A DNA stretch of 64,000 bases from Eubacteriales bacterium (GCA_045629725.1 JAZQRT010000015.1:4189-68188); one strand, 5' to 3'. Positions 5,872-51,946 are shown, counted from the stretch's first letter. Made by a program: numbers and translations. Notes: generated by a model not told the origin, from the sequence alone.

Positions 5872-7098
5872 TTGATAGAAAATAATAATTTTGAAAACAA
5901 TGGCAATGTAACCTCCGCATCTGAACTCCCTGAAAGGGAGCCAAAAGCGGAATTCGACATCAAAAGCTTTAACTCATATTCTCAGCCATATACGCACCAA
6001 GCAGAGCCTCCGCGCCAAGATACCGTGCCGCTCAGCTCATCAGAAGCACCGATCAAGCATCTTTCGCCCGATGGCTCATACTATACCCCCGAGGTACCCA
6101 CATGGTATTACGGATATAATGAAAATTCGGCAAAGCCACCCGTTGATCCCGCTCTTGAAGCACGTTTATTCAAAAAAGATCTGAGACGAAGATTTTCCTA
6201 CGTTGCATTTATGATTCTTGCAATGTTCTTCATATATCAGTTTGCAGGATCTCTTGCTCTTGGCATATACGCTGCCATGACAAATACAACGATTGAGGAT
6301 CTTTCTCAAACAGCCACCATGATCATCGGTACCCTTTCGATTGCTCTTGTGGGATTCCCCGTTTTGCTTCTTATGTTACTTCCCAAAAAAGCATCAAAGC
6401 CCATAAAATCAAAAACCAATCCAATCAAGCTGCTTCCTTACCTCACCATATCAGCTCTGTGTGTAATCTCAGGTGTTTTGCTTGGAAGCATTATTAAATC
6501 TGTACTTGGCGAGATCTTGGGAGCTGAGATGCAGGATATCGTATCAAGCGGACTTGAAGGCGTTCCGTTATGGCTGATCTTTATCTTTGTTTGTGTTTTC
6601 CCAGGAATATTTGAAGAGCTTATATTCCGCAAGCTTGTAATTGATAAAACAAGAGAGTTTGGTGATTTTGCGGCAGTTGTTTTTTCCGCCCTCACCTTTG
6701 GAATATTCCACGGAAATTTCGAGCAGTTCTTCTACGCATTCTTCACAGGTCTCCTTTTTGGATACGTATATGTAAAAACAGGACGCATTCTTTACACTAT
6801 AATCCTTCATACTACGGTAAATTTCTGCGGTTCAGTGGTTACAACCCTTATTCAGGATTCCACCGTCGCACAGTTGATTTATCTGATTGCAGTTTTTGTT
6901 ATCGGATTTATAGGCTTGATCGCCCTTGTTTTTGAGATAATTGACAATCACAAAAAATTCAACGATGATATAGGAATTCAAAAAATAGGCGGAACAGACG
7001 TTATTAAGGGTATATTCTTGAACCCCGGCGCTATTACGTTCTTTATTGTATTTATCTATGTTTTTGTTGAATATACACTTATGTCCTTCAGCTTATAA
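5872..7098 (+). CDS. CPBP family intramembrane glutamic endopeptidase with a long Pro/Ser/Tyr-rich N-terminal tail
   Basis: TTG start. Motifs FEELIFRKL and FGIFHGN lie within a polytopic membrane region. The first ~110 aa are low-complexity and non-hydrophobic. Confidence 0.8.
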   Translation: MIENNNFENNGNVTSASELPEREPKAEFDIKSFNSYSQPYTHQAEPPRQDTVPLSSSEAPIKHLSPDGSYYTPEVPTWYYGYNENSAKPPVDPALEARLFKKDLRRRFSYVAFMILAMFFIYQFAGSLALGIYAAMTNTTIEDLSQTATMIIGTLSIALVGFPVLLLMLLPKKASKPIKSKTNPIKLLPYLTISALCVISGVLLGSIIKSVLGEILGAEMQDIVSSGLEGVPLWLIFIFVCVFPGIFEELIFRKLVIDKTREFGDFAAVVFSALTFGIFHGNFEQFFYAFFTGLLFGYVYVKTGRILYTIILHTTVNFCGSVVTTLIQDSTVAQLIYLIAVFVIGFIGLIALVFEIIDNHKKFNDDIGIQKIGGTDVIKGIFLNPGAITFFIVFIYVFVEYTLMSFSL

Positions 7099-7100
7099 TC

Positions 7101-7982
7101 ATGAAAAAATATAACGCTTGGCTTACCGTCAACAGCTTTTTAAACACAAAAAAGTTTTCGGAGCTTTATTCATATCTTCTTGAGGCAGCAGAGAAAAGGG
7201 ATATCCTGCTTGAGATTAAAAAAACATCGGATATTCCTTTTTGCTCCGATGCCCCCCCTAAAAACAAGCCCGACTTCATTCTTTGGTGGGATAAAGACGT
7301 AAACCTTGCCGCGCTTTATGAAAATGCGGAAGTGAGGCTTTACAATTCCTCCCGAGCCATTGAATACTGTGACAACAAGGCTAAAACCGTTTTGGAGCTA
7401 TCAAAAAACAAAGCTATTCCCCTACCCCGCACCATTTTTGCACCCAAGACCTTTGCAGGCATCGGATATACAGATCTTTCTTTTCTTGATCACGCCGAGG
7501 ACATCCTCGGATATCCAATGATAATTAAGGAATGCTACGGCTCCTTCGGTGCACAGGTCTACCTTGCAAAGAACCGCCCCGAAGCCGAAAGCATTATAAA
7601 AGAAAGAATTATCGACCGCGAATTTATAATGCAGGAATTTATATCCGAGTCCTTTGGCAAAGACGTCAGAATAAACGTGGTGAAGGGACACGCTGTTTGC
7701 AGTATGATGCGCCATAACCCTGATGATTTTCGATCAAACATTACAAACGGCGGAAAGACGGTACTCTACGAACCCACAAAGGAGCAAATATCCGCAGCGG
7801 TTATTGCCACGGAAACACTCGGACTTGATTTTGCAGGTGTTGACGTGCTTTTCGGGAAGGACGGAGTACCCTATATTTGCGAGGTAAACTCCAATCCGCA
7901 CTTCAAAACAACTCTTGACTGTACGGGAATTAATCTTGCAGACCATATACTTGAGGGAATTATTGAGGATCTTGAAAAATGA
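7101..7982 (+). CDS. RimK-type ATP-grasp ligase (paralogue 1)
   Basis: 293 aa. YPMIIKECYGSFGAQVY ... DFRSNITNGG ... FAGVDVLF ... ICEVNSNP follows the RimK/LysX ATP-grasp pattern. Starts 2 nt after the CPBP stop. Confidence 0.8.
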   Translation: MKKYNAWLTVNSFLNTKKFSELYSYLLEAAEKRDILLEIKKTSDIPFCSDAPPKNKPDFILWWDKDVNLAALYENAEVRLYNSSRAIEYCDNKAKTVLELSKNKAIPLPRTIFAPKTFAGIGYTDLSFLDHAEDILGYPMIIKECYGSFGAQVYLAKNRPEAESIIKERIIDREFIMQEFISESFGKDVRINVVKGHAVCSMMRHNPDDFRSNITNGGKTVLYEPTKEQISAAVIATETLGLDFAGVDVLFGKDGVPYICEVNSNPHFKTTLDCTGINLADHILEGIIEDLEK

Positions 7983-8830
7983 AAGGGTATATTTTATACG
8001 ATCGAGAGGGCATATTGCGCAACCGCAGCTTTGCCGAGGCTATAATCGACCACGCTGAAAAAAGAAGCGTGAAAATCGAGATACTGCTTCGCGAGGACGT
8101 TCTGTGCACCATGCAGGACTCAAAGCTCTGCCTTGTTTCAAAAGATGGCAGGTCAATTACTGCGGATTTTATAATCAACAGATGCATCGACCCTCTTTTT
8201 GCCGAATTTGCAGAGAAATCAGGCATTAAAGTTTTTAATTCCGCTGAGGTTTGCAGAATATGCAACGACAAGCGCCTCACGCATATTCATTTTGCAGAAA
8301 AAGGCATTCCCATGGCAAACAGCGTTTTTCTCAATAAATATGACGAAGGATATTCTCCGAGTGAATATCCGAAGGTCCTTAAGGCTCCCGCAGGGCACGG
8401 CGGAAACGAAGTGTTTTTTATAAAAAACGAGATAGAATTAAAATCTCACAGCTTTACCCAAAGACTGATCCAGTCACCTGTAAAGACTCTTGGAAAGGAC
8501 CTCAGAGTTTACGTTTTAAACGGAGAGATACTCTCATCTGTGCTCAGGAGCTCCTCTCGGGATTTCCGAAGCAATTTTTCTCTTGGAGGCTCGGCGCAGA
8601 TCTATTATCCCTCCGAAAGAGAAAATGATCTTATAAAAAAGGTAATTGATGCTCTGCCAAAAGGAGCACTCTACGTTGGTATTGATTTTATTTTTGACGC
8701 AGACAAAATGCTTCTCAACGAGGTTGAAGACATCGTCGGCTCAAGAATGTTGTACCAAAAGACCTCCATCCCCGTCCATGAGCTTTTCACGGACAGCATT
8801 ATTAACGAAATGAACAAAGGAGAATCATAA
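7979..8830 (+). CDS. RimK-type ATP-grasp ligase (paralogue 2)
   Basis: 283 aa. DFRSNFSLGG ... VGIDFIF ... LNEVED follows the same pattern. ATGA start/stop overlap with paralogue 1. Confidence 0.75.
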   Translation: MKGYILYDREGILRNRSFAEAIIDHAEKRSVKIEILLREDVLCTMQDSKLCLVSKDGRSITADFIINRCIDPLFAEFAEKSGIKVFNSAEVCRICNDKRLTHIHFAEKGIPMANSVFLNKYDEGYSPSEYPKVLKAPAGHGGNEVFFIKNEIELKSHSFTQRLIQSPVKTLGKDLRVYVLNGEILSSVLRSSSRDFRSNFSLGGSAQIYYPSERENDLIKKVIDALPKGALYVGIDFIFDADKMLLNEVEDIVGSRMLYQKTSIPVHELFTDSIINEMNKGES

Positions 8831-9420
8831 TGGAAAACAAGGTTTTAAATGTTGCTGAGTGCAAGGAAAGATTTTTGAAGATCTGCCGTGAGAAAATAAA
8901 CCGCCCCGGACTTGAAAATCTTATTGAATGGCTCGAAAAAAGCGATTTCTTTTCTGCACCCGCAAGCTCCAAATTCCACGGAAACTATATCGGCGGACTT
9001 TGTGAACATTCCCTCAACGTATATGACGTTGCACTCCATTTGAAAGAAAAATACATGCCCGAGGGCATTCAGGATGAAAGCATCGCTATCGCGGCGCTTT
9101 TCCACGATCTTTGCAAGGTACACTGCTATAAAAAAGGCTTCAGAAACGTAAAAAACGATGCGGGTGTTTGGGAAAAGAAGGAAGTTTGGGAAATTGACGA
9201 GCGTCTGCCCCTCGGTCACGGCGAAAAAAGCTGTATCATTCTCCAGTGGTTCATCCGTCCCACAGTTGACGAGCTCATCGCTATACGTTGGCATATGTCA
9301 GGCTTTGACAAATCCGTTATCGGCGGCGACTATTCCATAAGCAAGGCTCAGGACTTCACTCCCCTTTGCGGACTTATTCAAGCGGCTGACATGATCGCCT
9401 CAAACCTTGTTGAAAGATAA
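8830..9420 (+). CDS. HD-domain metal-dependent phosphohydrolase
   Basis: 196 aa with FHG...CEHSL and LFHDLCK (His...His-Asp signature). TAATG overlap with the preceding gene. Confidence 0.75.
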   Translation: MENKVLNVAECKERFLKICREKINRPGLENLIEWLEKSDFFSAPASSKFHGNYIGGLCEHSLNVYDVALHLKEKYMPEGIQDESIAIAALFHDLCKVHCYKKGFRNVKNDAGVWEKKEVWEIDERLPLGHGEKSCIILQWFIRPTVDELIAIRWHMSGFDKSVIGGDYSISKAQDFTPLCGLIQAADMIASNLVER

Positions 9421-17825: not shown

Positions 17826-18776
17826 TTATCCCGGTCCAAGAATTTTTTCATAAATAACAATCTCGATCTTCGTCACTTCTTCCATGCCGACTAGCTCCTT
17901 GAATATTTCAAAGGTAAACTCGTCGACATTGTGATTATATCGCGAGGACAAACTCGATGCTCTTGAGAGAAATCTGATTCTTGTGCAGCCGTATTCCTCA
18001 TCCCAATACACCAAAAAATTCAAATTTCCAACTTCCTCCGAAGTCAGTGATTTTCCGTATACTCTAAACTCCAATTCATAATTAAAATATTGGTCATAAA
18101 AGTATTTATATTTTTCGCAAAACTCGTTAAAAATACCTTCTATATCCTTTTCTTCATCTATCGGATTTTGAACTGTATAACCGTAATTCTTCGGCTTCCA
18201 TTTCAGTTCTTCAAGAACTATTTCTGCCTTGGTAACGTTTTCTATTTCAAGGGCTTCCTTAAACATCTCATAAGAAAACCGGTTGAGGAGCTTTATACCA
18301 TCCGCACTAACTGAACTCGGCACAAATCTGAGATTTATATAGCCTTTCTCAAGATACCACACATTGACAAAAACCAAATCACCTACAAAATAATTGCTGT
18401 CTAAATCATTTCCGTATAGTCTAAACTCCAACTGAAAATCAAGTCCCTTTTCAAAAAGTTCCTTATATTTTTCGCAAAATTCCGAAAATATCACTTCAAG
18501 ATTTTCTTCTTTATCAAAAGGCTTTTCGATCACATAGCTTCTGCCACTGAATTCCTCGGTTTCATCAGTAATTGTGGTTTCTTCGGAAGTAGGAGTGACG
18601 GTAATATCTGTATCGGGTTCCTTTGTTGTAGTCGGAACGGGTGTCGGAACATATGAAGCCGACACTGAGCCTTCCGTGCTCGTGGGCTCAGGAGTGGGTA
18701 CGGTGTTCACGTTACAGCTTGAAAGCATTGTTAGTAACGCAACGCAAAGTAACAACATTGAAATCGTTTTTTTCAT
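17826..18776 (-). CDS. lipoprotein of unknown function with two tandem ~115-aa repeat domains
   Basis: The signal peptide has the lipobox LLTMLSSC. A Thr/Pro/Glu-rich linker follows, then two similar domains (FSEFCEKYKELF...LEFRLYG... and FNEFCEKYKYFY...LEFRVYG...). Confidence 0.6.
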   Translation of the reverse strand: MKKTISMLLLCVALLTMLSSCNVNTVPTPEPTSTEGSVSASYVPTPVPTTTKEPDTDITVTPTSEETTITDETEEFSGRSYVIEKPFDKEENLEVIFSEFCEKYKELFEKGLDFQLEFRLYGNDLDSNYFVGDLVFVNVWYLEKGYINLRFVPSSVSADGIKLLNRFSYEMFKEALEIENVTKAEIVLEELKWKPKNYGYTVQNPIDEEKDIEGIFNEFCEKYKYFYDQYFNYELEFRVYGKSLTSEEVGNLNFLVYWDEEYGCTRIRFLSRASSLSSRYNHNVDEFTFEIFKELVGMEEVTKIEIVIYEKILGPG

Positions 18777-18839: not shown

Positions 18840-19754
18840 TTATCCTTTTACCGTTGTTGTAGAAAACATCACGGGCGCGCGCATAAGGAGGGGGCGAATT
18901 ACGGCGTATATACGGCGCGCATCGTCCTCGGGCAGGGGATTTTTGCCCCTTCCGCACTCAAGGGTAAGGCATGGGATCTTACACTCCCTTGTTACCCAAT
19001 CAAGAAGTCCACCCATTGATGCTGTGCCTTCGGTTCGGGATATGCGGTATCCCGTAAGCTTCGAGGCAAGACGGGCATTTTTCATAGACGCTTCAAGGGC
19101 ATAGCCTCGGCTTTCACAGTATATTTCCTCCCCCTGTGTGTGGAGGGAGATTATATTCCTCGGACGCTCGCTTCTGATATAGTGGCAAAGAGCAGCGCAC
19201 TCCGGCTCACTTTCGGGATATTCTCCCGAATATTTACTCCGAGCTCCGCCAAACAGTCCCATTTCATGCTCTATTCCCTTATAGTGGGCAAACATATCGT
19301 TATAGTTATGGTTCAGGTCAACTCCCCTGCCGTTTGCCTGCCAAGCGGTGAAATCATCACCTCCGCCATTCATACGTTTAAGACGGTCATACATAATATC
19401 GTCATGGGAAACACCCCTAACGCTTATCTCAACGCCGTCGGGATTCAGCATGGGAACAATATCCACCCTGCGGGTATTTACAAAAAGCTCCCTGTCAACG
19501 CCTCCGATCCTCTTGCCTTCACGAAGAAGCGCACTGACTTCCTTTATATATTCAAGGAGGAGCGCCGAGGTTATGCCCTCGGCACCGTGGTGTGCTCCGA
19601 CGTAAAGCACCTTTTTCTCTCCCTTGCCGATACTCACCATGGGGATCTCCCGACCTCTGTATGAACGCCCCACGGCTTTTACGGTTATATGCTCGCTTTT
19701 CGAATCAATGGCTTTAAGCTCGGACATCACTCTGTCCCACGTTATCCTCTCCAT
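18840..19754 (-). CDS. M14 family zinc peptidase (gamma-D-glutamyl-meso-diaminopimelate peptidase-like)
   Basis: The start is moved to MERITWDRV (ATG preceded by GGGGGA). Motifs are GAHHGAEGITS, PMLNPDG and SLHTQGEEIY. Confidence 0.8.
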   Translation of the reverse strand: MERITWDRVMSELKAIDSKSEHITVKAVGRSYRGREIPMVSIGKGEKKVLYVGAHHGAEGITSALLLEYIKEVSALLREGKRIGGVDRELFVNTRRVDIVPMLNPDGVEISVRGVSHDDIMYDRLKRMNGGGDDFTAWQANGRGVDLNHNYNDMFAHYKGIEHEMGLFGGARSKYSGEYPESEPECAALCHYIRSERPRNIISLHTQGEEIYCESRGYALEASMKNARLASKLTGYRISRTEGTASMGGLLDWVTRECKIPCLTLECGRGKNPLPEDDARRIYAVIRPLLMRAPVMFSTTTVKG

Positions 19755-19927
19755 CGCACAATCCCCCAAGGAAACAATTAGGTTAATTATTATTATGATA
19801 TGCAAAAAAGCTAATCGGCACCAAAAAAAAATACGTGTTTTCATTGTTTGGTTTTTAAAACGATTTTTCCGCCTTGAAATTTGTCATTATCCAAAACAGA
19901 GTAATTTCCTATTTAACAAAAAAGCTA

Positions 19928-19956
19928 TTGCATTTTATAGGATATTTTGATATAAT
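19928..19956 (+). promoter_or_regulatory. promoter of the HprK-like/PqqD operon
   Basis: TTGCAT, 17-nt spacer, TATAAT. Confidence 0.55.
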
Positions 19957-20014
19957 ATTGTTTATGTTGAGGATGGTATGCCCTACAGATCAAACGGCAT
20001 AAAAGGAGAGCACA

Positions 20015-20740
20015 ATGACAAAGCTGGACAGATACAGAATCGCTGAAACTGAGATCGGTATACGTTCACCCTATGAAGTACACCGAAGCTTTTGTAAGGA
20101 TTACGTATCAAGCGATAACGAAATACCCGAGCTTATTATCGACGTCACCGAGGAAGACATCAAAAAGGAGTTTTCCAATTACAAGACCTATACCCCCACC
20201 CCCGAGGGCGCTTCCCTTTCCCTTATTTTCAGAAAGCTTAGTGAGTATATCATAAAAAAAGGAGGCTTTATGATGCACAGTGCCGTCATTGAATACGGCG
20301 GACGTGCATACGCCTTTACGGCTCCCAGCGGAACGGGTAAATCCACACACATAAAAAATTGGAAAAAGCTTCTCGGCGATAGAATAAATATTGTCAACGG
20401 CGACAAACCCATCATCATACGCAAAAACGGTATTTTTTACGCCTGCGGAACGCCGTGGGCAGGAAAAGAAGGCTGGCAGAGAAACGTCTGTGTTCCCCTT
20501 GGCGGCATTTGCAGAATAAAAAGAGGCAGTGAAAATCGTATCCGAGGTTTAACCTCCGGAGATTGCGCCGAGATCGTTCTAGCAGCAACTTTCATTCCGA
20601 ACGAAACAGAACTTTTAGTGACCCTTTTAGATTCCGTGGATGAATTTTCCGCGTCGGTTCCGGCTTATGAGATTTATTGCACCGCAGATGAAATCTCCGC
20701 TGTAGTTTCGTTTGAAGCAATGACGGGAGATAATATATAA
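20015..20740 (+). CDS. HPr-kinase-like P-loop protein (HprK C-terminal-domain-like serine kinase fold; function unknown)
   Basis: 241 aa. A Walker A-like FTAPSGTGKSTH lies after a beta-rich N-terminal half. Its size and its pairing with a PqqD-like gene recall HprK-related kinases of peptide-modification cassettes. The call was made by eye only. Confidence 0.5.
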   Translation: MTKLDRYRIAETEIGIRSPYEVHRSFCKDYVSSDNEIPELIIDVTEEDIKKEFSNYKTYTPTPEGASLSLIFRKLSEYIIKKGGFMMHSAVIEYGGRAYAFTAPSGTGKSTHIKNWKKLLGDRINIVNGDKPIIIRKNGIFYACGTPWAGKEGWQRNVCVPLGGICRIKRGSENRIRGLTSGDCAEIVLAATFIPNETELLVTLLDSVDEFSASVPAYEIYCTADEISAVVSFEAMTGDNI

Positions 20741-20770
20741 ACAACAAAAACATATAAAAGGAGTGGCCTT

Positions 20771-21040
20771 ATGAAACTTAAAGAAACCTTTATCGTCAGA
20801 CACATGGGTGATAAATGCGTTGCAGTCCCCACAGGAAAGGTTAGCTTGACATTTAAGGGAATGATAACTCTCAGCCCTACCGCCGAGGTTCTTTTTAACC
20901 TTTTGAAAAAGGGTTGTGACGGGACCCTCGATCTTGCAAATGCTCTTTGTGCAGAATACGACGTAGATTTTGAAAAAGCTAAGTCAGACGCAGAAGCATT
21001 TGTTTCAAAGCTTGAAAGCGCGGGGCTCCTTGAGGACTGA
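20771..21040 (+). CDS. PqqD family protein (RiPP-recognition-element-like peptide chaperone)
   Basis: 89 aa. LSPTAEVLFNLLKKGCDGTLDLANALCAEYDVDFEKAKSDAEAFVSKLESAGLLED follows the PqqD winged-helix pattern. Confidence 0.7.
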   Translation: MKLKETFIVRHMGDKCVAVPTGKVSLTFKGMITLSPTAEVLFNLLKKGCDGTLDLANALCAEYDVDFEKAKSDAEAFVSKLESAGLLED

Positions 21041-21041
21041 C

Positions 21042-22013
21042 ATGAATAAAAAAAACATTTCTTTAATTATTTCGATAGTAATTACACTTGCCGTGGCCTT
21101 AAGCTGTGTTTTTATTTTAACAAGAAACAAGCCCAAAGACTTGACAAGTGAAAAAATAAACGAGCTTTACTCACAAAAAAGCAAAATTAATTACGAGATC
21201 GACAAATACCGAGTAAGACTTGAAGAACTCACCGTTACCAAAGCGGGGCTATTCATTTTATTTGAAAATCTTGAGGAAACACTTATAGAAAACGCTCTGC
21301 CCTTGCTCCAAGAAAACGAGGATTATAAAGCCATCGTTAAAGTATCTCCCGACGAATACCAAAACAGTATATTGCTGGACGAATTGGAAGAACAAGGGTG
21401 GGAATTTGCAATAGGCTTTGATGGAAATTATTCCTTTCCCGAAAGCGATAAGGATGCTGCCGCAGCACTTGAGGATCACATTGGTCTTTACAGTGAAAAC
21501 GGTAAAATCCCTTCCATCATCAGCTTTTCCTCGGGAAATGCAAGTTATCGCCGTGCATTTGACGAGGTTTTGGAAAAATATGATATTAAAGTAGTGATTG
21601 CTCCCAAAGTTTTTCTTGCGGGCGGCAACGAATTTCTTGATTATGATCACGAAACCGGTCTTTTGAAGATTCCCTGCGTTCCTTTTTCTGTTACAAATAC
21701 AGTTGAAGCCATAGTGAAAACTCACATAGCCTCTAATAAGCCTCTTGTTTTGTCAATCAAACATCTTGAAACCAACGTTTCCTCGAACTCCGATAAGCTT
21801 TCGGAGGAAAAATTCACACTTATGCTTGAATATATCGAGAAATATGACAAGCTGCACGTCGGAAACAGTTTGTCTTACAGAGAATTTATTGTCTCGGAAC
21901 ACTCAAAAAACATTGATGAGTACACAGATGTCCTGAAAAAAATCGAAGAATGCGAAAAAAAGATCGCATCAATCGATAAAGAAATAAACGAACTTATGGA
22001 TCCAAAAAAATAA
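21042..22013 (+). CDS. membrane-anchored protein of unknown function with coiled coils flanking a globular domain
   Basis: The start is moved to MNKKNISLIISIVITLAVAL (ATG 1 nt after the PqqD stop). One N-terminal TM helix, with heptad-like segments at both ends. Confidence 0.5.
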   Translation: MNKKNISLIISIVITLAVALSCVFILTRNKPKDLTSEKINELYSQKSKINYEIDKYRVRLEELTVTKAGLFILFENLEETLIENALPLLQENEDYKAIVKVSPDEYQNSILLDELEEQGWEFAIGFDGNYSFPESDKDAAAALEDHIGLYSENGKIPSIISFSSGNASYRRAFDEVLEKYDIKVVIAPKVFLAGGNEFLDYDHETGLLKIPCVPFSVTNTVEAIVKTHIASNKPLVLSIKHLETNVSSNSDKLSEEKFTLMLEYIEKYDKLHVGNSLSYREFIVSEHSKNIDEYTDVLKKIEECEKKIASIDKEINELMDPKK

Positions 22014-22018
22014 ATATT

Positions 22019-22540
22019 ATGAAAATTATCAATTATATTACCCGAGAAAAACTGATCTGCTTTTTTCTTATCGTTGCTATTTTGGCAACAATAATATTTA
22101 TTTTTTCTAACTCCTTAAAAAACAAAGCAGAGTCCTCTGTGGAAAGCTCCAATGTTGCAAGTACCGTAAAGCCGGTTATCGATCCTTCGAATAAGATCCC
22201 CTTCCAAACATTCGAGTATTTTGTTAGAAAATACGCCCACTTCCTTGAATTTATGCTTTTGGGAGCCGAGCTTTTCGCTCTCCTTTTTACACTTTCTAAA
22301 AGCAATCTAAAAAACATAAAGCTCACAGGATATTTATCCATACTTTTGATATCCACCCTTACAGCGCTTGGCGACGAAACACTGCAGATTGCCACAAACC
22401 GCGGCGCCGCTCTCACGGACGTATGGATAGATATTGCAGGATCATTTACAGGAACGGTTTTATGCTTCCTCTTCCTTATCTTCGTTTTATTCCTGACAAA
22501 ACGAATTCAATCAAAAAAAGTCATGTCCGATGGGGATTGA
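22019..22540 (+). CDS. VanZ-like family membrane protein
   Basis: 173 aa with FVRKYAHFLEFMLLG and LGDETLQ motifs and four hydrophobic segments. Confidence 0.65.
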   Translation: MKIINYITREKLICFFLIVAILATIIFIFSNSLKNKAESSVESSNVASTVKPVIDPSNKIPFQTFEYFVRKYAHFLEFMLLGAELFALLFTLSKSNLKNIKLTGYLSILLISTLTALGDETLQIATNRGAALTDVWIDIAGSFTGTVLCFLFLIFVLFLTKRIQSKKVMSDGD

Positions 22541-22608
22541 CAGGCGCAAGAAAAAAACATATAATAAATACGTTAATGTAGTATTTAATTTTCAGAAAGG
22601 TTAAAGTT

Positions 22609-23310
22609 ATGGAAAATAATAACAACAGTTACGAAATAAATCTTGAAAAAATAACCGATGTTTTCAGACAATTTTATATTTGGATTCTGCTTGCAGTCAT
22701 TCTTTTCGGTTCTCTTGCAGCAATATTTACGGAATTGTTTATTGCTGACACCTATTCCACCAGTGTTTCATTTTACGTTAAGGACAGCGAATCCTCATCT
22801 ACAACCACAACTCAGCAGTACAGCGCTGCAGACACCCACGTTTATACTTCAATGGCAATCCTCTCAGCGGGAGAATGCCATGAAACATTGGGCATAAAGG
22901 GAAAAGCTGTTTCAATTACTTCTACAAAAAAAGAAAAAACCCCCATGTTCATCGTTAAGGTTTCAGGAACAGATAAGTATGTAGCTTACGAGGTTGCTGC
23001 CATCATAAAAGACGAGCTGCCGGGATACGTTTTCTCAAAAACACAAACGGGAAGCCTCAGCGTTTATGACTTTACCGGCATTGATACAGTTCCCGACGGT
23101 CCCAATCTTATGAAAAACGTTGTTATTGCCGCATTTATTGGATTTGTACTTAGCTTTGCTTTCTTCTTCCTTCGTATAATCCTTGATACAGAAATACATT
23201 CGGAAGAAGATATTCGTTCCAATTACCCCTACCCGATTCTTGGTGCTATTCCTTCAATTACAGAGGAATCCCAATCTGAAGGCGGCTATTATTCATATCC
23301 AAGAAAGTGA
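22609..23310 (+). CDS. Wzz/CpsC-type polysaccharide chain-length determinant (BY-kinase transmembrane modulator)
   Basis: 233 aa with N- and C-terminal TM helices around a periplasm-like domain. It precedes and overlaps the kinase gene. Confidence 0.75.
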   Translation: MENNNNSYEINLEKITDVFRQFYIWILLAVILFGSLAAIFTELFIADTYSTSVSFYVKDSESSSTTTTQQYSAADTHVYTSMAILSAGECHETLGIKGKAVSITSTKKEKTPMFIVKVSGTDKYVAYEVAAIIKDELPGYVFSKTQTGSLSVYDFTGIDTVPDGPNLMKNVVIAAFIGFVLSFAFFFLRIILDTEIHSEEDIRSNYPYPILGAIPSITEESQSEGGYYSYPRK

Positions 23311-23327
23311 TTACGAAAGGAGAAGCC

Positions 23328-24116
23328 ATGATTAGAATATTCGATAAATTCAAGAAAAAGCCTAAGCGTCACGTTTCAACTCGAAACTACAAAAACAAAC
23401 TTCTCTCAAAGGACTCTCCCTTTGCAATGACAGAATCATTTAAAAAGCTGAGAACCAATCTCCTTTTCGCAGCGGCGGGCGCTGAATGTCCCGTTATTGC
23501 AATTACCTCTACATTTCAGGAAACCGGTAAATCCATTATTATAGCCAACCTCGCTATTTCCTTTGCTCAGCTTGAAAAAAAGGTTCTCGTCATTGACTGT
23601 GACCTTCGTAAACCTGCTCAGCACAAAATTTTTGGAATTGAAAACAATTCCGGACTTTCAAATCTCCTTGCCGGAATGTCCAATCAAGAGATAAGCATCA
23701 AAAAATTAAAGGAATACGACAATCTTTCACTGATCACCTCGGGAAATATTCCTCCCAATCCCGCTGAGCTTCTTGCTTCCGAAAGCATGAAAAAGCTTTT
23801 AAATGTACTTCGTCAAAAATATGATATCATACTCATCGACCTGCCACCTATCAGCATCGTTACAGATGCCGCCGTTGTTGCCAACATCGTTGATGGATAT
23901 CTTTTTGCGGTTCGTCTTGAACATGATGATACCAGCGCTGTTCAAGAAGCGATCAGAGCCCTTGAACAAACAGACGGAAAGATACTCGGCTTTGTTATCA
24001 ATGACGTTAATCCCAAGGCAGGAGGACGTTATTACAAAAATTACAACAGCAAATATTACCGTAATAAATACAAATATAATGACATTTACGAACATAGCGA
24101 AAATGATGACGATTAA
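23328..24116 (+). CDS. CpsD/CapB-type bacterial tyrosine kinase (BY-kinase catalytic subunit)
   Basis: Start at the ATG preceded by AAAGGAGAA. Walker A is TSTFQETGKS, followed by VIDCDLRKP. The C-terminal tail is Tyr-rich (YYKNYNSKYYRNKYKYNDIY). Confidence 0.85.
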   Translation: MIRIFDKFKKKPKRHVSTRNYKNKLLSKDSPFAMTESFKKLRTNLLFAAAGAECPVIAITSTFQETGKSIIIANLAISFAQLEKKVLVIDCDLRKPAQHKIFGIENNSGLSNLLAGMSNQEISIKKLKEYDNLSLITSGNIPPNPAELLASESMKKLLNVLRQKYDIILIDLPPISIVTDAAVVANIVDGYLFAVRLEHDDTSAVQEAIRALEQTDGKILGFVINDVNPKAGGRYYKNYNSKYYRNKYKYNDIYEHSENDDD

Positions 24117-24136: not shown

Positions 24137-24832
24137 ATGCCAAATCTTATTGACTTTCACGCGCATATTCTTCCCGGAGCCGACCACGGCTCAAGATCCA
24201 GAGATACGTCGGTAAAGCAGCTTGAGCTTATAAAGAACACAGGAGCTGACACGGTTATCGCAACACCTCACTTCTATCCCTCAAACACAAAAGTTGAGGA
24301 TTTTCTCAAAAGACGAGAGTTCTGCTCGGAAAAACTTCTTGATTCCGAGGCTCCGAAAATGGGTGTGCGCGTCATTACAGGAGCAGAGGTTCTCGTTTGC
24401 GAGGGAATGGAAAGAATGACAAACCTTGAAAAGCTATGTATTCCCGGAACAAACACCATGCTTCTGGAATTGCCCGTTACAGAATGGACTGAGGGTCTTT
24501 TCGAAACTGTTGAACGTATCTCGGAGCGTCACACCGTCGTTCTTGCACACATTGACAGATACCCCCTTTCAGACGTTTTACAGTTCCTTGAATTTAAGAG
24601 CGTCTTCGCCCAAATGAATCCCGGAGAGCTCACAAAGCTTTTCCTTAACAAGAAGTATCTTGAGTTAATTGATAAGGGTTGGGTAGCAGCTCTCGGAAGC
24701 GACCTTCATTCTACAAACGAAAAGCAGACCGCCACTTTCAAAAAAGCTGTGAAAAAGCTCGGAAATGAGCGCATCAAAAAAATAATGACTCGCAGCGCCG
24801 AGCTTATAAAGGATGCTAAGTATCTGATATAA
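24137..24832 (+). CDS. CpsB/CapC-type PHP-family tyrosine-protein phosphatase
   Basis: 231 aa with N-terminal IDFHAHILPGADHGS. Confidence 0.85.
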   Translation: MPNLIDFHAHILPGADHGSRSRDTSVKQLELIKNTGADTVIATPHFYPSNTKVEDFLKRREFCSEKLLDSEAPKMGVRVITGAEVLVCEGMERMTNLEKLCIPGTNTMLLELPVTEWTEGLFETVERISERHTVVLAHIDRYPLSDVLQFLEFKSVFAQMNPGELTKLFLNKKYLELIDKGWVAALGSDLHSTNEKQTATFKKAVKKLGNERIKKIMTRSAELIKDAKYLI

Positions 24833-25180: not shown

Positions 25181-25831
25181 TTACTTCGTCATTTTTTCCT
25201 GTTTCACTTTGTGGTCGATAACGTGGCGGCTTGCAAGCTCGTCATGAATGTCCTCAAGGGAAATTCCCATCTGCACCATCATTACCATTACGTGATATGC
25301 AAGGTCTGCAATCTCGTAGATCGTTTCCTTTTTATCATCAGCCTTGGCAGCAATGATGACCTCGGTCGTTTCCTCTCCAACCTTTTTGAGTATCTTATCA
25401 ATTCCTTTTTCAAAAAGATACGTAGTATACGAGCCTTCCTTTTTCTCGGTCTTTCTGCCCTTAAGAAGCTCCATAAGCCCTTCAAGAGAGAATGAGTGAA
25501 GCTCCTCGCTTTCCCAAATGGGATTTTCAAAGCATGAAAACGTGCCGAGGTGACACGCAGGACCCTGAGGCTCTACTTCAACCGTAAGAGCGTCCTTGTC
25601 GCAGTCCGCAGTGATGGAAACCACCTTCTGATAGTTTCCGCTTGTTTCACCCTTTAGCCACAATTCTTGGCGTGAGCGGCTCCAGAAGCAGGTAAGTCCC
25701 TTCTCCATTGTAATTTCAAGGCTTTCGCGGTTCATATATGCAAGGGTCAATACCTTTTTTGATCTTGTATCTACTACAATGGCAGGAATAAGACCCTTTT
25801 CGTCAAATTTAAGTTCGTCTATGTTGATCAC
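25181..25831 (-). CDS. hisIE: bifunctional phosphoribosyl-AMP cyclohydrolase / phosphoribosyl-ATP diphosphatase
   Basis: 216 aa with a GTG start after AAAGGAGAG. HisI core is [16 protein letters not shown]. The HisE tail has TTYLFEKG...EE..E. Confidence 0.93.
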
Positions 25832-49375: not shown

Positions 49376-50053
49376 ATGTTCAATATACTTGTTGCCGAGG
49401 ACGACGGCGGAACGCGTCGTCTTATGCGTGCAGTTCTTGAAGGCGGCGGATACCGTGTGATCACAGCTGAAAACGGTGTTGAAGCTCTGGAGCTTCTTGC
49501 CCATGAGCACGTGGATCTTATAGTTCTTGACGTTATGATGCCCCTTATGGACGGATATGAATTTACGAAAATTTTGCGTCAAGGCGGGGACGAAACCCCC
49601 ATTCTCATGGTAACGGCAAAACAGGGACAGGAAAGCATAAAAGAAGGCTTTATTTCAGGCACAGATGATTACATGGTCAAGCCCGTTGACGAGGAGGAGA
49701 TGCTCCTCAGAATTTCAGCACTTCTAAGACGCGCAAAGATCTCCAGTGAAAAAAAGATCACCGTGGGAGAAGTGGAATTTGACTACAACGGTTTCACATG
49801 TAAAAACAAAAACGGAATGATCGAGCTGCCGCAAAAGGAGTTTTTGCTGATATTTAAGCTTCTCTCCAACAACAATAAAATATTTACCCGCAGAAGCCTT
49901 ATGGATGAGATCTGGTCGATGGACAGCGAAACCGACGAACGTACCGTTGACGTACATATAAACCGCCTGAGAGAACGTTTCCGCGGAGTTGAGGACTTTG
50001 AGATCGTAACTGTAAGAGGACTTGGATATAAGGCGGTAATAAAACAACAATGA
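49376..50053 (+). CDS. OmpR-family response regulator
   Basis: Receiver domain (D...DVMMP...K) plus a winged-helix C-terminal domain (RGLGYK). Confidence 0.9.
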   Translation: MFNILVAEDDGGTRRLMRAVLEGGGYRVITAENGVEALELLAHEHVDLIVLDVMMPLMDGYEFTKILRQGGDETPILMVTAKQGQESIKEGFISGTDDYMVKPVDEEEMLLRISALLRRAKISSEKKITVGEVEFDYNGFTCKNKNGMIELPQKEFLLIFKLLSNNNKIFTRRSLMDEIWSMDSETDERTVDVHINRLRERFRGVEDFEIVTVRGLGYKAVIKQQ

Positions 50054-51126
50054 AAAATTTTATTAAGTTTAATATTACAACTCTCAGAAAGGTAGTAACC
50101 AGATGGTTTATTATCATTATTTCTGCATCGGGTGTTTTGTCAGCACTGCTTTTTACTGTTGCCTATTTTGCAGGAATGAAAATGACCATCGGACGAGAGG
50201 GGCTTATGATCGTGTGGCTATCCATCGTCGCCTCAACTCTTATCGGTATTCTGGTTGTAATTCCAATTTCAAGGTTTATTATCAAGCCGATACAGGACCT
50301 CAGTAATTCTGCCGATGAGATCGCACGAGGTAATTTTGACGTTAGAGTCAACGAAAAAAAAGGCCCTCGGGAGTTCCGAGAGCTTTATGAGAGCTTTAAT
50401 AAAATGGCTGAGCAGTTGGGCGAAACCGAGATGTTCCGACAAAACTTCATAAACGATTTTTCCCATGAATTTAAAACCCCCATCGTATCAATAAGAGGAT
50501 TTGCCCGTCAGCTTGAAAGAGATACAACGCTTACCGAGGAAAGGAAGCGTGAATATATATCGATAATTGCCGAGGAAGCCGAGCGTCTTTCCAATATGTC
50601 GGGAAACGTGTTGCTTCTTTCAAGGCTGGAAAATCAGCAGAGTATTTCCGGTGAGGACTGGATAGATCTTGACGAACAGATACGTCAGTGCATCCTTGTG
50701 CTTGAAAGAATGTGGAGCGGGAAGGACATTGAATTTGACGTTGAGCTTGAAAGTCTACGCTACCGCAGTAACGATGAAATGCTAAAGCAAATGTGGATAA
50801 ACATTCTTTCCAATGCGGTTAAATTTACGCCATCGGGCGGTAAGATCTTCGTTGGCGCAAAAAAGTCGGATAGCAACATTGAAGTCACCATCTCGGACAC
50901 AGGAAGCGGTATGGATGAAGTGACTCTTGAGCGTATGTTTGAGAAATTTTATCAAGCAGACACTTCAAGAGCTACAGAGGGCAACGGTCTTGGGCTTTCT
51001 CTTGTAAGACGTATTGCTGAGCTTTGCAAAGCTCGGATAGAGGTATCAAGTAAAGTGGGCGAAGGAACAAGCTTTGTAATTCTTCTTCCTGTAAGATCTG
51101 ATAACTTTGATTCTAAAGCCTGTTGA
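50050..51126 (+). CDS. sensor histidine kinase (2 TM, HAMP, HisKA, HATPase_c)
   Basis: H-box FSHEFKTP. N and G boxes are NAVKF and DTGSGM...GLGLSL. ATGA overlap with the response regulator. Confidence 0.9.
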   Translation: MKNFIKFNITTLRKVVTRWFIIIISASGVLSALLFTVAYFAGMKMTIGREGLMIVWLSIVASTLIGILVVIPISRFIIKPIQDLSNSADEIARGNFDVRVNEKKGPREFRELYESFNKMAEQLGETEMFRQNFINDFSHEFKTPIVSIRGFARQLERDTTLTEERKREYISIIAEEAERLSNMSGNVLLLSRLENQQSISGEDWIDLDEQIRQCILVLERMWSGKDIEFDVELESLRYRSNDEMLKQMWINILSNAVKFTPSGGKIFVGAKKSDSNIEVTISDTGSGMDEVTLERMFEKFYQADTSRATEGNGLGLSLVRRIAELCKARIEVSSKVGEGTSFVILLPVRSDNFDSKAC

Positions 51127-51946
51127 ATTTTGTTCTGTAGGAGCACCTTTGGCAAAGGTTTTCAAGGGCAATATGTTTTTTGAATCCTTCGAGCATGGCT
51201 TGGACGCGCTCCGATGACATTATATCCTCAATTTTATCATTGAATATATTTCCCAGTGTGATAGCGCCGTCACTGTCAAGGCAGCAAGGAACCACACGGC
51301 CGTCAGAAAGTATACCGATCTGTTCGCGAAGACCGAGACAAAAGGCTTCTCCCTCGTATATGGGTGCTTCGGCATCGGGCCAATCGAATTTCTTGTCCCA
51401 TTCAAGAAAAATGCGGTCAGCAAGACGGAATCCCTTTTTGGTATTTACCCATTCGGCAGTGAAATACTGCCGGCAAAGCTCAAGAATCTCGGAGTTCAAT
51501 ACCTCAAGTCCTCCGGAATTCCAAAGACGAAAGACTGCAAAGGTGCCCTCCGCTGCGGCTTTTGATGCAAAATCAAAGCACCCTCTGAGATATGCCTCCA
51601 TATCCTTTGAAAGATTGGCTTCAAAGCTGTGAAGGGAAATGTTCACACGGTAAAGACCGCACCCGAGTATACTGTCACCCATTTTTGGAAGAAGTGTACC
51701 GTTGGTGGTCAGTATTGGGCGAATACCTGCCTTATTTGTTTCTTTTATAAATTCAGGGAGCAGAGGATGAGCGGTGGGCTCTCCCATAAGGTGAAAAAAC
51801 ACACTTTTTGCATAGGGCGAAACGGCACGGAGCGCCGACGAAAATTCCTCTTGAGTCATGGTTTTTGGTGCTCTTTTGGTCTTATGGCAAAAGGAGCAGT
51901 CAAGATTGCATATATTAGTTATTTCTATGTACACGTTTGAAAACAA
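51113..51946 (-). CDS. radical SAM protein with C-terminal SPASM/twitch-like Cys cluster
   Basis: 277 aa with a TTG start. CNLDCSFC (CxxxCxxC) lies at residues 13-20. The C-terminal region reads GRVVPCCLD...CQRCSY. Confidence 0.75.
   Translation of the reverse strand: MFSNVYIEITNICNLDCSFCHKTKRAPKTMTQEEFSSALRAVSPYAKSVFFHLMGEPTAHPLLPEFIKETNKAGIRPILTTNGTLLPKMGDSILGCGLYRVNISLHSFEANLSKDMEAYLRGCFDFASKAAAEGTFAVFRLWNSGGLEVLNSEILELCRQYFTAEWVNTKKGFRLADRIFLEWDKKFDWPDAEAPIYEGEAFCLGLREQIGILSDGRVVPCCLDSDGAITLGNIFNDKIEDIMSSERVQAMLEGFKKHIALENLCQRCSYRTKFNRL

Follow-up and report, generated by a model that had tools for sequence, protein, structure and literature searches.

We analysed a 64,000-nucleotide stretch of Eubacteriales bacterium DNA (GCA_045629725.1, JAZQRT010000015.1:4189-68188), hereafter the window, in which four genes of the plus strand (+), termed A to D, precede a set of capsule regulator genes. 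Gene A (20015-20740) encodes a 241-amino-acid P-loop kinase-like protein whose Walker A motif, APSGTGKST, occupies residues 103-111, and gene B (20771-21040) encodes an 89-amino-acid, discrete PqqD-like recognition element (RRE) of the type known from peptides made on the ribosome and modified after translation (RiPPs). The 323-amino-acid product of gene C (21042-22013) consists of an N-terminal transmembrane anchor, a coiled-coil stalk, an extracytoplasmic domain of the NodB fold, which we call a pseudo-CE4 domain after carbohydrate esterase family 4 (CE4), and a long C-terminal helix, while gene D (22019-22540) encodes a 173-amino-acid VanZ-family membrane protein. An earlier annotation made from the DNA alone (the sequence-only reading) had described these as four tightly spaced genes, and both the open reading frames (ORFs) and the spacings hold: the ATG of C, at 21042, lies 1 nt past the stop of B, and D begins 5 nt past C. 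Further downstream on the same strand are genes for a CpsC/Wzz-like (PCP2b) transmembrane activator (22609-23310), a CpsD-type bacterial tyrosine kinase (BY-kinase or BYK) with a C-terminal tyrosine cluster (23307-24116), and a CpsB-type PHP phosphotyrosine phosphatase (24137-24832).

The four-gene unit has the promoter that had been assigned to it (19928-19956, +), with a -35 box TTGCAT (19928-19933), a 17-nt spacer and TATAAT (19951-19956), to which we add that the -10 element is of the extended type, TGaTATAAT. It was not listed by our scan for consensus promoters, as only 3/6 positions of its -35 box match. The block CTATTGCATTTT...TGnTATAAT is kept upstream of orthologous A genes in four other genomes (L010, L091, L090 and L001 of the set of loci described below). 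A 12-codon ORF between the -10 box and the ribosome-binding site of A (19965-20002) was rejected as a candidate, there being no space for a ribosome-binding site of its own and the region being unconserved in orthologous loci.

A kinase-like P-loop protein paired with a RiPP recognition element

The sequence-only reading had called the 241-amino-acid protein HprK-like, and this call holds at the level of the fold. By family, gene A probably belongs with ScmC: its homologues in a large protein collection number 1968, all 120 of those listed are tagged PF27840 (ScmC), and P0001, a protein 99% identical to gene A, has a precomputed PF27840 match, while our local copy of Pfam, which does not contain PF27840, gave no match. 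When 1.84 billion cluster representatives were searched with a profile of A, 2230 clusters (50% identity) passed a threshold of E<=1e-30, and 7680 clusters passed E<=1e-10. The best NCBIfam model was TIGR04249 (ScmC), with 25 bits and an E-value of 7.7e-6 against a cutoff of 125, followed by TIGR04352, and all matches to ScmC and to HprK-related kinases A and B were sub-threshold and confined to the P-loop region. At 25 bits versus 125, gene A does not appear to be an equivalog of TIGR04249. The HPr kinase/phosphorylase (HPrK/P) families (Hpr_kinase_C, TIGR00679) produced no match to gene A in Pfam or NCBIfam, and a profile search of PDB sequences returned P-loop noise only and did not reach HPrK/P, so that a fold search was needed.

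The AlphaFold2 (AF2) model of gene A (pLDDT 95.4) was matched by Foldseek to the catalytic domain of Lactobacillus casei HPrK/P (1kkm, E 6.5e-6, as well as 1kkl and 1jb1; E about 1e-5, target-normalised TM 0.46-0.55) and to ATP-dependent phosphoenolpyruvate carboxykinase (PEPCK; 1oen, E 1e-6, TMq up to 0.6). Like HPrK/P, gene A combines this catalytic fold and a P-loop with a histidine upstream of the P-loop and an Asp-containing strand after it, which reads NGD in A and ADD in HPrK/P. In contrast to HPrK/P, with which it shares no significant sequence match, it has a different N-terminal domain and is partnered by an RRE, not by HPr. In the alignment of A homologues the invariant positions are H88, S105-G-x-G-K-x-T-H112, N128-G-D-K-P132 and P147-W-x-G-K-E152; the P-loop of gene A is intact, and H88 and D130 are invariant in the family. 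Thus, gene A is modelled as a P-loop protein of the PEPCK/HPrK fold, yet by its sequence it is not a member of the HPrK/P family.

The PqqD pattern reported earlier for the 89-amino-acid protein was borne out by Pfam, in which gene B matched PqqD (PF05402) with 48.4 bits, above the cutoff of 23.4 (E 1.2e-12), and by this score we take it to be a bona fide PqqD/RRE. A word-indexed homologue search with B returned close orthologues only (15 matches).

The A-B pair in other genomes

Relatives of A were sought with a pattern in a single genome of each GTDB species. They occurred in 384 genomes, nearly all of uncultured Oscillospiraceae, Lachnospiraceae or "Eubacteriales", and 80 loci (loci are designated by L and a number) were examined with purpose-built profiles. 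A PqqD gene lay within 1.5 kb of A in 52/80 loci. In 41/80 loci we found a soluble peptidase of about 150 amino acids and S24/S26 type (GxSMxP ... H ... GDN), resembling SipW-like signal peptidase I (SpI), the usual order being A-PqqD-peptidase with the genes abutting or overlapping. The best NCBIfam model for this peptidase, TIGR02228 (archaeal-type signal peptidase I), was sub-threshold and is the same as for bona fide LppS, the peptidase of the LPP clusters discussed below. Fuller clusters (L013, L017, L053, L063, L074 and L089) contain in addition an NTP_transf_5 protein (Pfam E 3.5e-37) and an MsbA-like exporter of about 550 amino acids (ABC_membrane+ABC_tran), and a C-family gene is also part of such clusters (e.g. 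L017, L063, L074 and L089).

The same partners recur as natural fusions. A is fused to PqqD in P0060 and in L089; three clusters join it to NTP_transf_5, and one cluster joins it to Peptidase_S24. These Rosetta-stone fusions support a functional coupling of A with its partners. Two other fusion partners of A are a tyrosine-phosphatase-family domain (Y_phosphatase3; P0232) and DUF3737 (P0154). The A-B pair is conserved side by side in relatives, both as neighbouring genes and as fused proteins, and forms the core around which a large family of Clostridial clusters is built. None of the three outcomes that the sequence-only reading had named as refuting it was seen. The sequence-only reading had treated the pair as an isolated orphan, a view that we had to abandon: the pair in the window is a reduced form of this family, whose members normally come with a SipW-like peptidase, NTP_transf_5 and an MsbA-like exporter.

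Comparison with LPP, lasso peptide and SynChlorMet clusters

The gene set of the fuller clusters is the core set of the linear polyphosphorylated peptide (LPP) clusters of Bacilli, first described in May 2026 (Popov et al., Nat Commun 2026, PMC13381572). The LPP core comprises the SpI peptidase LppS, the discrete RRE LppB, the HprK-like kinase LppK, the NTP_transf_5 protein LppN and the MsbA-like exporter LppD, acting on a precursor, LppA, that has the N-terminal leader YxxPxVLxHQxIxFETxxS; LppK places up to four phosphates on core Ser3, and leader removal by LppS is RRE-dependent (PMC13381572). The "HprK kinase" group of that study (152 proteins) includes 67 assigned to TIGR04249, 65 to TIGR04352 and 11 to TIGR04355; VanZ co-occurs with the core in 31/126 Bacilli clusters; and the clusters are embedded in capsule loci, the studied one adjoining a chain-length-determinant tyrosine kinase gene (PMC13381572). 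Its Supplementary Data 1 also lists, but does not study, Clostridial SpI-RRE pairs (clusters 4 and 9 of the sequence similarity network) as "RRE others" with no precursor determined (PMC13381572).

The window shares with LPP a discrete PqqD-type RRE beside an HprK-like kinase that matches TIGR04249/ScmC best, VanZ as a frequent neighbour, and a capsule or exopolysaccharide (EPS) context with a chain-length-determinant tyrosine kinase, and relatives of the window cluster hold the rest of the core, namely the SpI peptidase, NTP_transf_5 and the MsbA-like exporter. It differs in that it contains no SpI peptidase, nucleotidyltransferase, exporter or leader-bearing precursor, in that its RRE falls in the "RRE others" class, and in having a pseudo-CE4 membrane protein, which is not among the listed LPP domains. 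With respect to the RRE, gene B aligned to WP_015045167.1, an "RRE others" protein that has a Clostridial SpI as its partner in Popov et al., at 34% identity (E 8e-19), and to an LppB at 28% identity (E 2e-7), which suggests that it is nearer to the former class. As four of the six LPP-defining features are missing, we did not file the window as an LPP biosynthetic gene cluster; the Clostridial family as a whole is an uncharacterised sister of LPP.

The missing genes could be encoded in trans, so that a precursor modified by A-B would be processed and exported by a peptidase, a nucleotidyltransferase and a transporter from elsewhere in the genome. For some Bacilli the LPP RREs and precursors are indeed encoded elsewhere in the genome (PMC13381572), and A-B also occurs as a two-gene unit in housekeeping contexts (L023, L048, L081 and L086). 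However, the parts of the window that were annotated contain no such partners, and a split pathway would leave unexplained the tight, conserved linkage of the pair to C, VanZ and cpsCDB, so that we regard it as rather improbable.

Lasso peptide clusters of the paeninodin type (PadeK/ThcoK with a B1 RRE) are similar in that there a precursor recognised by an RRE is phosphorylated on a serine by a kinase of the HPrK fold, and in that NTP_transf_5 and an ABC exporter occur in related clusters. Unlike these, neither the annotated parts of the window nor the 80 loci contain a cyclase, a B2 protease or a precursor; specifically, neither a lasso cyclase (Asn-synthetase-like) nor a transglutaminase-like B2 protease is encoded by the window genes annotated up to 20 kb on either side, and neither belongs to the families that recur as neighbours in the 80 loci. 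The statement of the sequence-only reading that the cassette has no cyclase, protease, radical SAM enzyme or precursor was thus upheld by profile, annotation and six-frame leader scans.

SynChlorMet (SCM; TIGR04249-04251) cassettes unite ScmC, a PqqD homologue and two radical SAM (rSAM)/SPASM proteins. Since A is probably in Pfam ScmC, has TIGR04249 as its best model and has a PqqD partner next to it, and the window holds an rSAM/SPASM gene (51113-51946, -, 277 amino acids) with weak matches to ScmF and ScmE (42 and 35 bits versus cutoffs of 400), A-B might have been part of a cassette of this type together with that gene. This, however, can be considered effectively refuted. A itself scores far below the equivalog cutoff, and no ScmE/ScmF radical SAM genes are adjacent to it. 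The rSAM gene lies 30 kb from the cassette with the his and ilv/leu operons between, its best matches (tungsten-cofactor maturase, MoaA) are generic and sub-threshold, a PhoR/WalK-like two-component pair (49376-51126) is convergent with it, and no rSAM family is recurrent near A among the 80 loci. The link to this gene, offered as speculative in the sequence-only reading, was accordingly dropped, the gene being unrelated.

A conserved reduced variant

The arrangement seen in the window is not confined to it. The order A-PqqD-C-VanZ-Wzz-BYK-CpsB without a peptidase is shared by the window, L010, L001/L011, L090 and L091, and L065 has the same order minus VanZ; in all six peptidase-less loci that contain C, Wzz-BYK-CpsB follows immediately downstream. 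The proteins of L010, L001, L090 and L091 share with their window counterparts 48-63% (A), 39-80% (B), 32-48% (C), 40-46% (VanZ), 47-75% (Wzz) and 59-76% (BYK) of their amino acids, and the A of L065 is about 39% identical to that of the window. Synonymous divergence (dS) was saturated, so that only the nonsynonymous rate (dN) is informative: dN was 0.16-0.22 for B and 0.15-0.19 for Wzz and BYK, while A reached 0.3 and both C and VanZ 0.5. Among the first four genes B, at 73-80% identity, is conserved best. Low dN and a conserved order across diverged loci argue that the reduced cassette is maintained by selection and does not reflect a fresh deletion.

These data bear directly on the idea that the cassette is the decaying remnant of an LPP-like cluster, which would have lost its peptidase, exporter and precursor by deletion and kept A and B as functionless passengers. 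In favour of it, four of six LPP-defining elements are missing. However, the ORFs are intact, A keeps all the residues that are invariant in its family, the reduced order is kept across loci whose A proteins are only 39-63% identical, dN is far under the saturated dS with B among the most conserved genes, and the promoter is conserved. We therefore consider decay very unlikely.

The pseudo-CE4 and VanZ proteins

The sequence-only reading had described gene C as a transmembrane-anchored coiled-coil protein. Both of these elements are there, yet the description was incomplete, as AF2 and Foldseek add a domain of 200 amino acids with the CE4/NodB fold. In the AF2 model of gene C (pLDDT 83) a transmembrane helix (4-27) and a long helix (34-63) lead into an alpha/beta domain of about 200 amino acids (68-273), which is followed by a long C-terminal helix (276-319). 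Foldseek matched the domain to the CE4/NodB polysaccharide and peptidoglycan deacetylases PdaC (6h8n, E 8.5e-5), BA0150 and CtCE4, with E-values of 1e-4 and target-normalised TM values of about 0.5, as well as to CE4 esterases and the CE4 pseudoenzyme BA3943, and there was no Pfam Polysacc_deac_1 match. In the alignment gene C has neither TFDD nor H(S/T)xxH: the first motif is FEN, FED or FEE, and the His-His motif is absent. As both TFDD and HxxxH are missing, we treated it as a pseudo-enzyme; it most likely sits outside the cytoplasm on its coiled-coil stalk and, without catalytic activity, binds glycans or serves as a scaffold.

A word-indexed search with gene C found only close orthologues (6 matches). 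In the 80 loci, C-family genes lie downstream of A-PqqD-peptidase in L017, L049, L063, L073, L074 and L089. The C-family profile also catches genuine CE4 deacetylases, with LTFDDG and HTYSH intact, directly upstream of A in two loci (L079 2880-4115 and L083 8714-9919), where the CE4 gene ends 7 nt ahead of A and no PqqD gene was detected nearby. The VanZ-like call for gene D stands, with scores above the cutoffs for both Pfam VanZ (PF04892, 56.2 bits, cutoff 30.1, E 6.9e-15) and NF037970 (55.1 bits, cutoff 20, E 1e-14).

The adjoining CpsC/CpsD/CpsB genes

All three members of the downstream module that the sequence-only reading had named Wzz, BY-kinase and phosphatase were recovered by family matches. 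The Wzz-like protein is borderline in Pfam Wzz (25.3 bits versus a cutoff of 25.5) and matches TIGR01006 with an E-value of 3.5e-17; the BY-kinase matches TIGR01007 with 194 bits (cutoff 108) and has a Tyr-rich C-terminal tail, seen in the translation; and CpsB matches PF19567 (CpsB_CapC) with 79 bits (E 4.4e-22). The triad is thus that of CpsC/CpsD/CpsB (CapA/CapB/CapC) in Firmicutes capsule loci, all three proteins being present with clear matches. Unlike in those loci, the triad of the window is preceded by the kinase-RRE unit and has no genes for a glycosyltransferase, polymerase or flippase behind it; instead the his operon starts at 25181 on the opposite strand. A second Wzz/BY-kinase/CpsB triad was observed near the orthologous cassette in three loci (L010 2682-5046, L090 15593-19398 and L091 55-3870), with an S11 D-Ala-D-Ala carboxypeptidase alongside it in L090 and L091.

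Between gene D and the Wzz gene there are 68 nt in which, as had been noted earlier, no terminator-like site is found; what has to be added is a perfect promoter within this gap. This internal consensus sigma-A promoter, TTGACA-17-TATAAT (22537-22565, +), overlaps the VanZ stop codon, lies ahead of the cps regulator genes and scored 12/12 in the consensus promoter scan, and the same TTGACA-17-TATAAT recurs in the VanZ-Wzz gap of L010, L090 and L091. Given this conserved promoter, the cps regulators can be transcribed independently of the four-gene unit. The sequence-only reading had called the pair "welded" to the tyrosine-kinase module: the adjacency is real and kept in six loci, but the conserved promoter separates the units, so that the cps regulators adjoin the kinase-RRE unit as a possible separate transcription unit.

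The adjacency raises the possibility that RRE and kinase were repurposed, without any RiPP product, to regulate the module itself: B would dock on the cytoplasmic tail of CpsC or CpsD and A would phosphorylate Ser/Thr there, tuning capsule or EPS synthesis, or a domesticated RRE would recruit the ScmC-type kinase to another envelope-assembly protein. Consistent with this are the presence of Wzz-BYK-CpsB downstream in all six peptidase-less loci that have C, a dN of B as low as that of Wzz and BYK while A, C and VanZ evolve faster, the A homologue P0232 with its tyrosine-phosphatase-family domain, and a Y-x-x-P-I-L sequence in the CpsC tail of the window and of L010, which formally fits the lasso/LPP RRE motif [Y/W]xxPx[L/V/I]. 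However, xxYPILGxIP is a general feature of CpsC-type tails, and the first Tyr is absent in L011 and L065 despite the same gene order. Moreover, the cps genes are under their separate conserved promoter, and many A-B pairs have no BY-kinase within 10 kb, only 8/80 loci having one, with CpsCDB there in at least three different arrangements. The CpsC tail (GGYYSYPRK, YPYPIL) was consequently kept as an RRE ligand only within this unlikely alternative, since GGYYSYP is unconserved (...YSYSRK in L010, and different again in L011 and L065) and xYPILGxIP is generic to CpsC. Taken together, we judge such a direct action on CpsC/CpsD or on another envelope-assembly protein to be unlikely.

Candidate substrates in related loci

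Two overlapping scans showed, in about 20/80 loci, a small ORF that either is located directly upstream of A, its stop being 2-53 nt from the start of A, or is divergent at a distance of about 500 nt. Its product has a predicted lipoprotein signal peptide, then a very acidic, low-complexity stretch rich in Ser, Thr, Asp and Gly, and finally a short aromatic C-terminal motif such as GWSPFF, EYGPLF, GQFGAFF, DWNPWF, GPGWTPPQKN, GPDWTLPQQ, GPGYTVPIPPDYTK, GFGPLIDG, GWGPIQKL or GPGYTVPIPP. Examples, in loci ranging from L016 to L074, are L068 9709-9969, L020 9748-10005 and L017 9391-9858, located upstream of or divergent from A. With one fixed filter, 15 acidic lipoprotein-like ORFs were found in the 1-kb core flanks (147 kb) versus 0 in the other 944 kb of the same loci; the loci concerned are not phylogenetically independent, and several unrelated sequence types are involved. 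We propose that in the canonical Clostridial clusters these ORFs may encode the substrate or precursor. Separately, a membrane protein of about 219 amino acids ("c4"), with no Pfam match, precedes A in L035, L038, L043, L060, L061, L075, L077, L080 and L085, and these nine loci have no acidic lipoprotein gene.

The surroundings of the cassette in the window consist of genes for an M14 carboxypeptidase, a lipoprotein and a thiamine transporter and of the his, ilv/leu and serA-type operons. The M14 zinc carboxypeptidase (18840-19844, -) and the 316-amino-acid lipoprotein (17826-18776, -) are both divergent from the cassette; the latter has an S/T/P/E-rich linker, two internal repeats of about 110 amino acids and no Pfam match. 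This lipoprotein was rejected as a substrate, having two folded repeats and not ending in the aromatic motif by which the candidates of the related loci are marked. At 5872-9420 a CPBP/Rce1-like intramembrane protease (408 amino acids), two RimK-family ATP-grasp ligases and an HD-domain protein form one apparent operon, which may be a peptide-ligating or processing cassette.

Discussion

We interpret A-B as an RRE-guided kinase pair of the LPP type, present in the window in a conserved reduced variant, with its substrate encoded elsewhere and with a role in the envelope polysaccharide; we hold this interpretation with slightly better than even confidence. According to it, B would bind a peptide or protein at a short linear motif and present this substrate to A, as in LPP, and A would use ATP to place one phosphate or several on a serine of the substrate. 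In most relatives the pair would act together with the SipW-like leader peptidase, to which the fuller sets would add NTP_transf_5, the MsbA-like exporter and pseudo-CE4. In the window variant the product would be neither leader-cleaved nor exported by dedicated cluster genes, and its substrate would be either encoded elsewhere or a protein of the envelope-polysaccharide machinery. The serine kinase activity of A, the RRE-dependent delivery, the location of the substrate and the omission of leader removal and dedicated export are what we infer from the folds, families and gene order described above. As regards the role, the recurrence of CpsCDB, of CE4 and pseudo-CE4 proteins and of VanZ, together with a Wzm/Wzt-like exporter that, judged by reading the sequences, is associated with A in L046, points to surface-polysaccharide assembly or control.

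Several observations weigh against this interpretation. The scores of gene A against the ScmC and HprK-related models are far under their cutoffs, its kinase activity is a prediction, and its likeness to LppK was judged by shared family models and fold. A profile built from 42 related peptidases detected no SpI-like peptidase among the window ORFs, and no NTP_transf_5 or MsbA-like exporter is present in the annotated parts of the window (genes up to 52.7 kb). A six-frame regular-expression search of the window and of L001-L089 for the LPP-type leader motif ([YW]xxP...FET) gave chance matches inside large proteins only, and no acidic lipoprotein-like ORF occurs beside the window-type clusters, so that neither scan turned up a candidate substrate of A-B in the window. 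Finally, with the cps genes having a promoter of their own, their functional coupling to A-B rests on conserved adjacency only.

The sequence-only reading had offered either a peptide- or protein-directed kinase system feeding into EPS control or a RiPP-like system with partners encoded elsewhere; its observations were confirmed, and its interpretation was supported in part. The cassette indicates that a kinase-RRE core can persist under purifying selection without processing and export machinery. Its reduced variant is always found beside capsule tyrosine-kinase regulators and a pseudo-deacetylase, which points to a role in the envelope polysaccharide rather than in the production of an antibiotic-like peptide. 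If a domesticated RRE and kinase do act on the capsule machinery, serine (poly)phosphorylation would be a new control layer on capsule/EPS synthesis in gut Clostridia. The window offers a minimal two-protein system for a substrate search, and the related loci supply a testable class of candidate substrates for what is an abundant, uncharacterised family of gut Oscillospiraceae and Lachnospiraceae.

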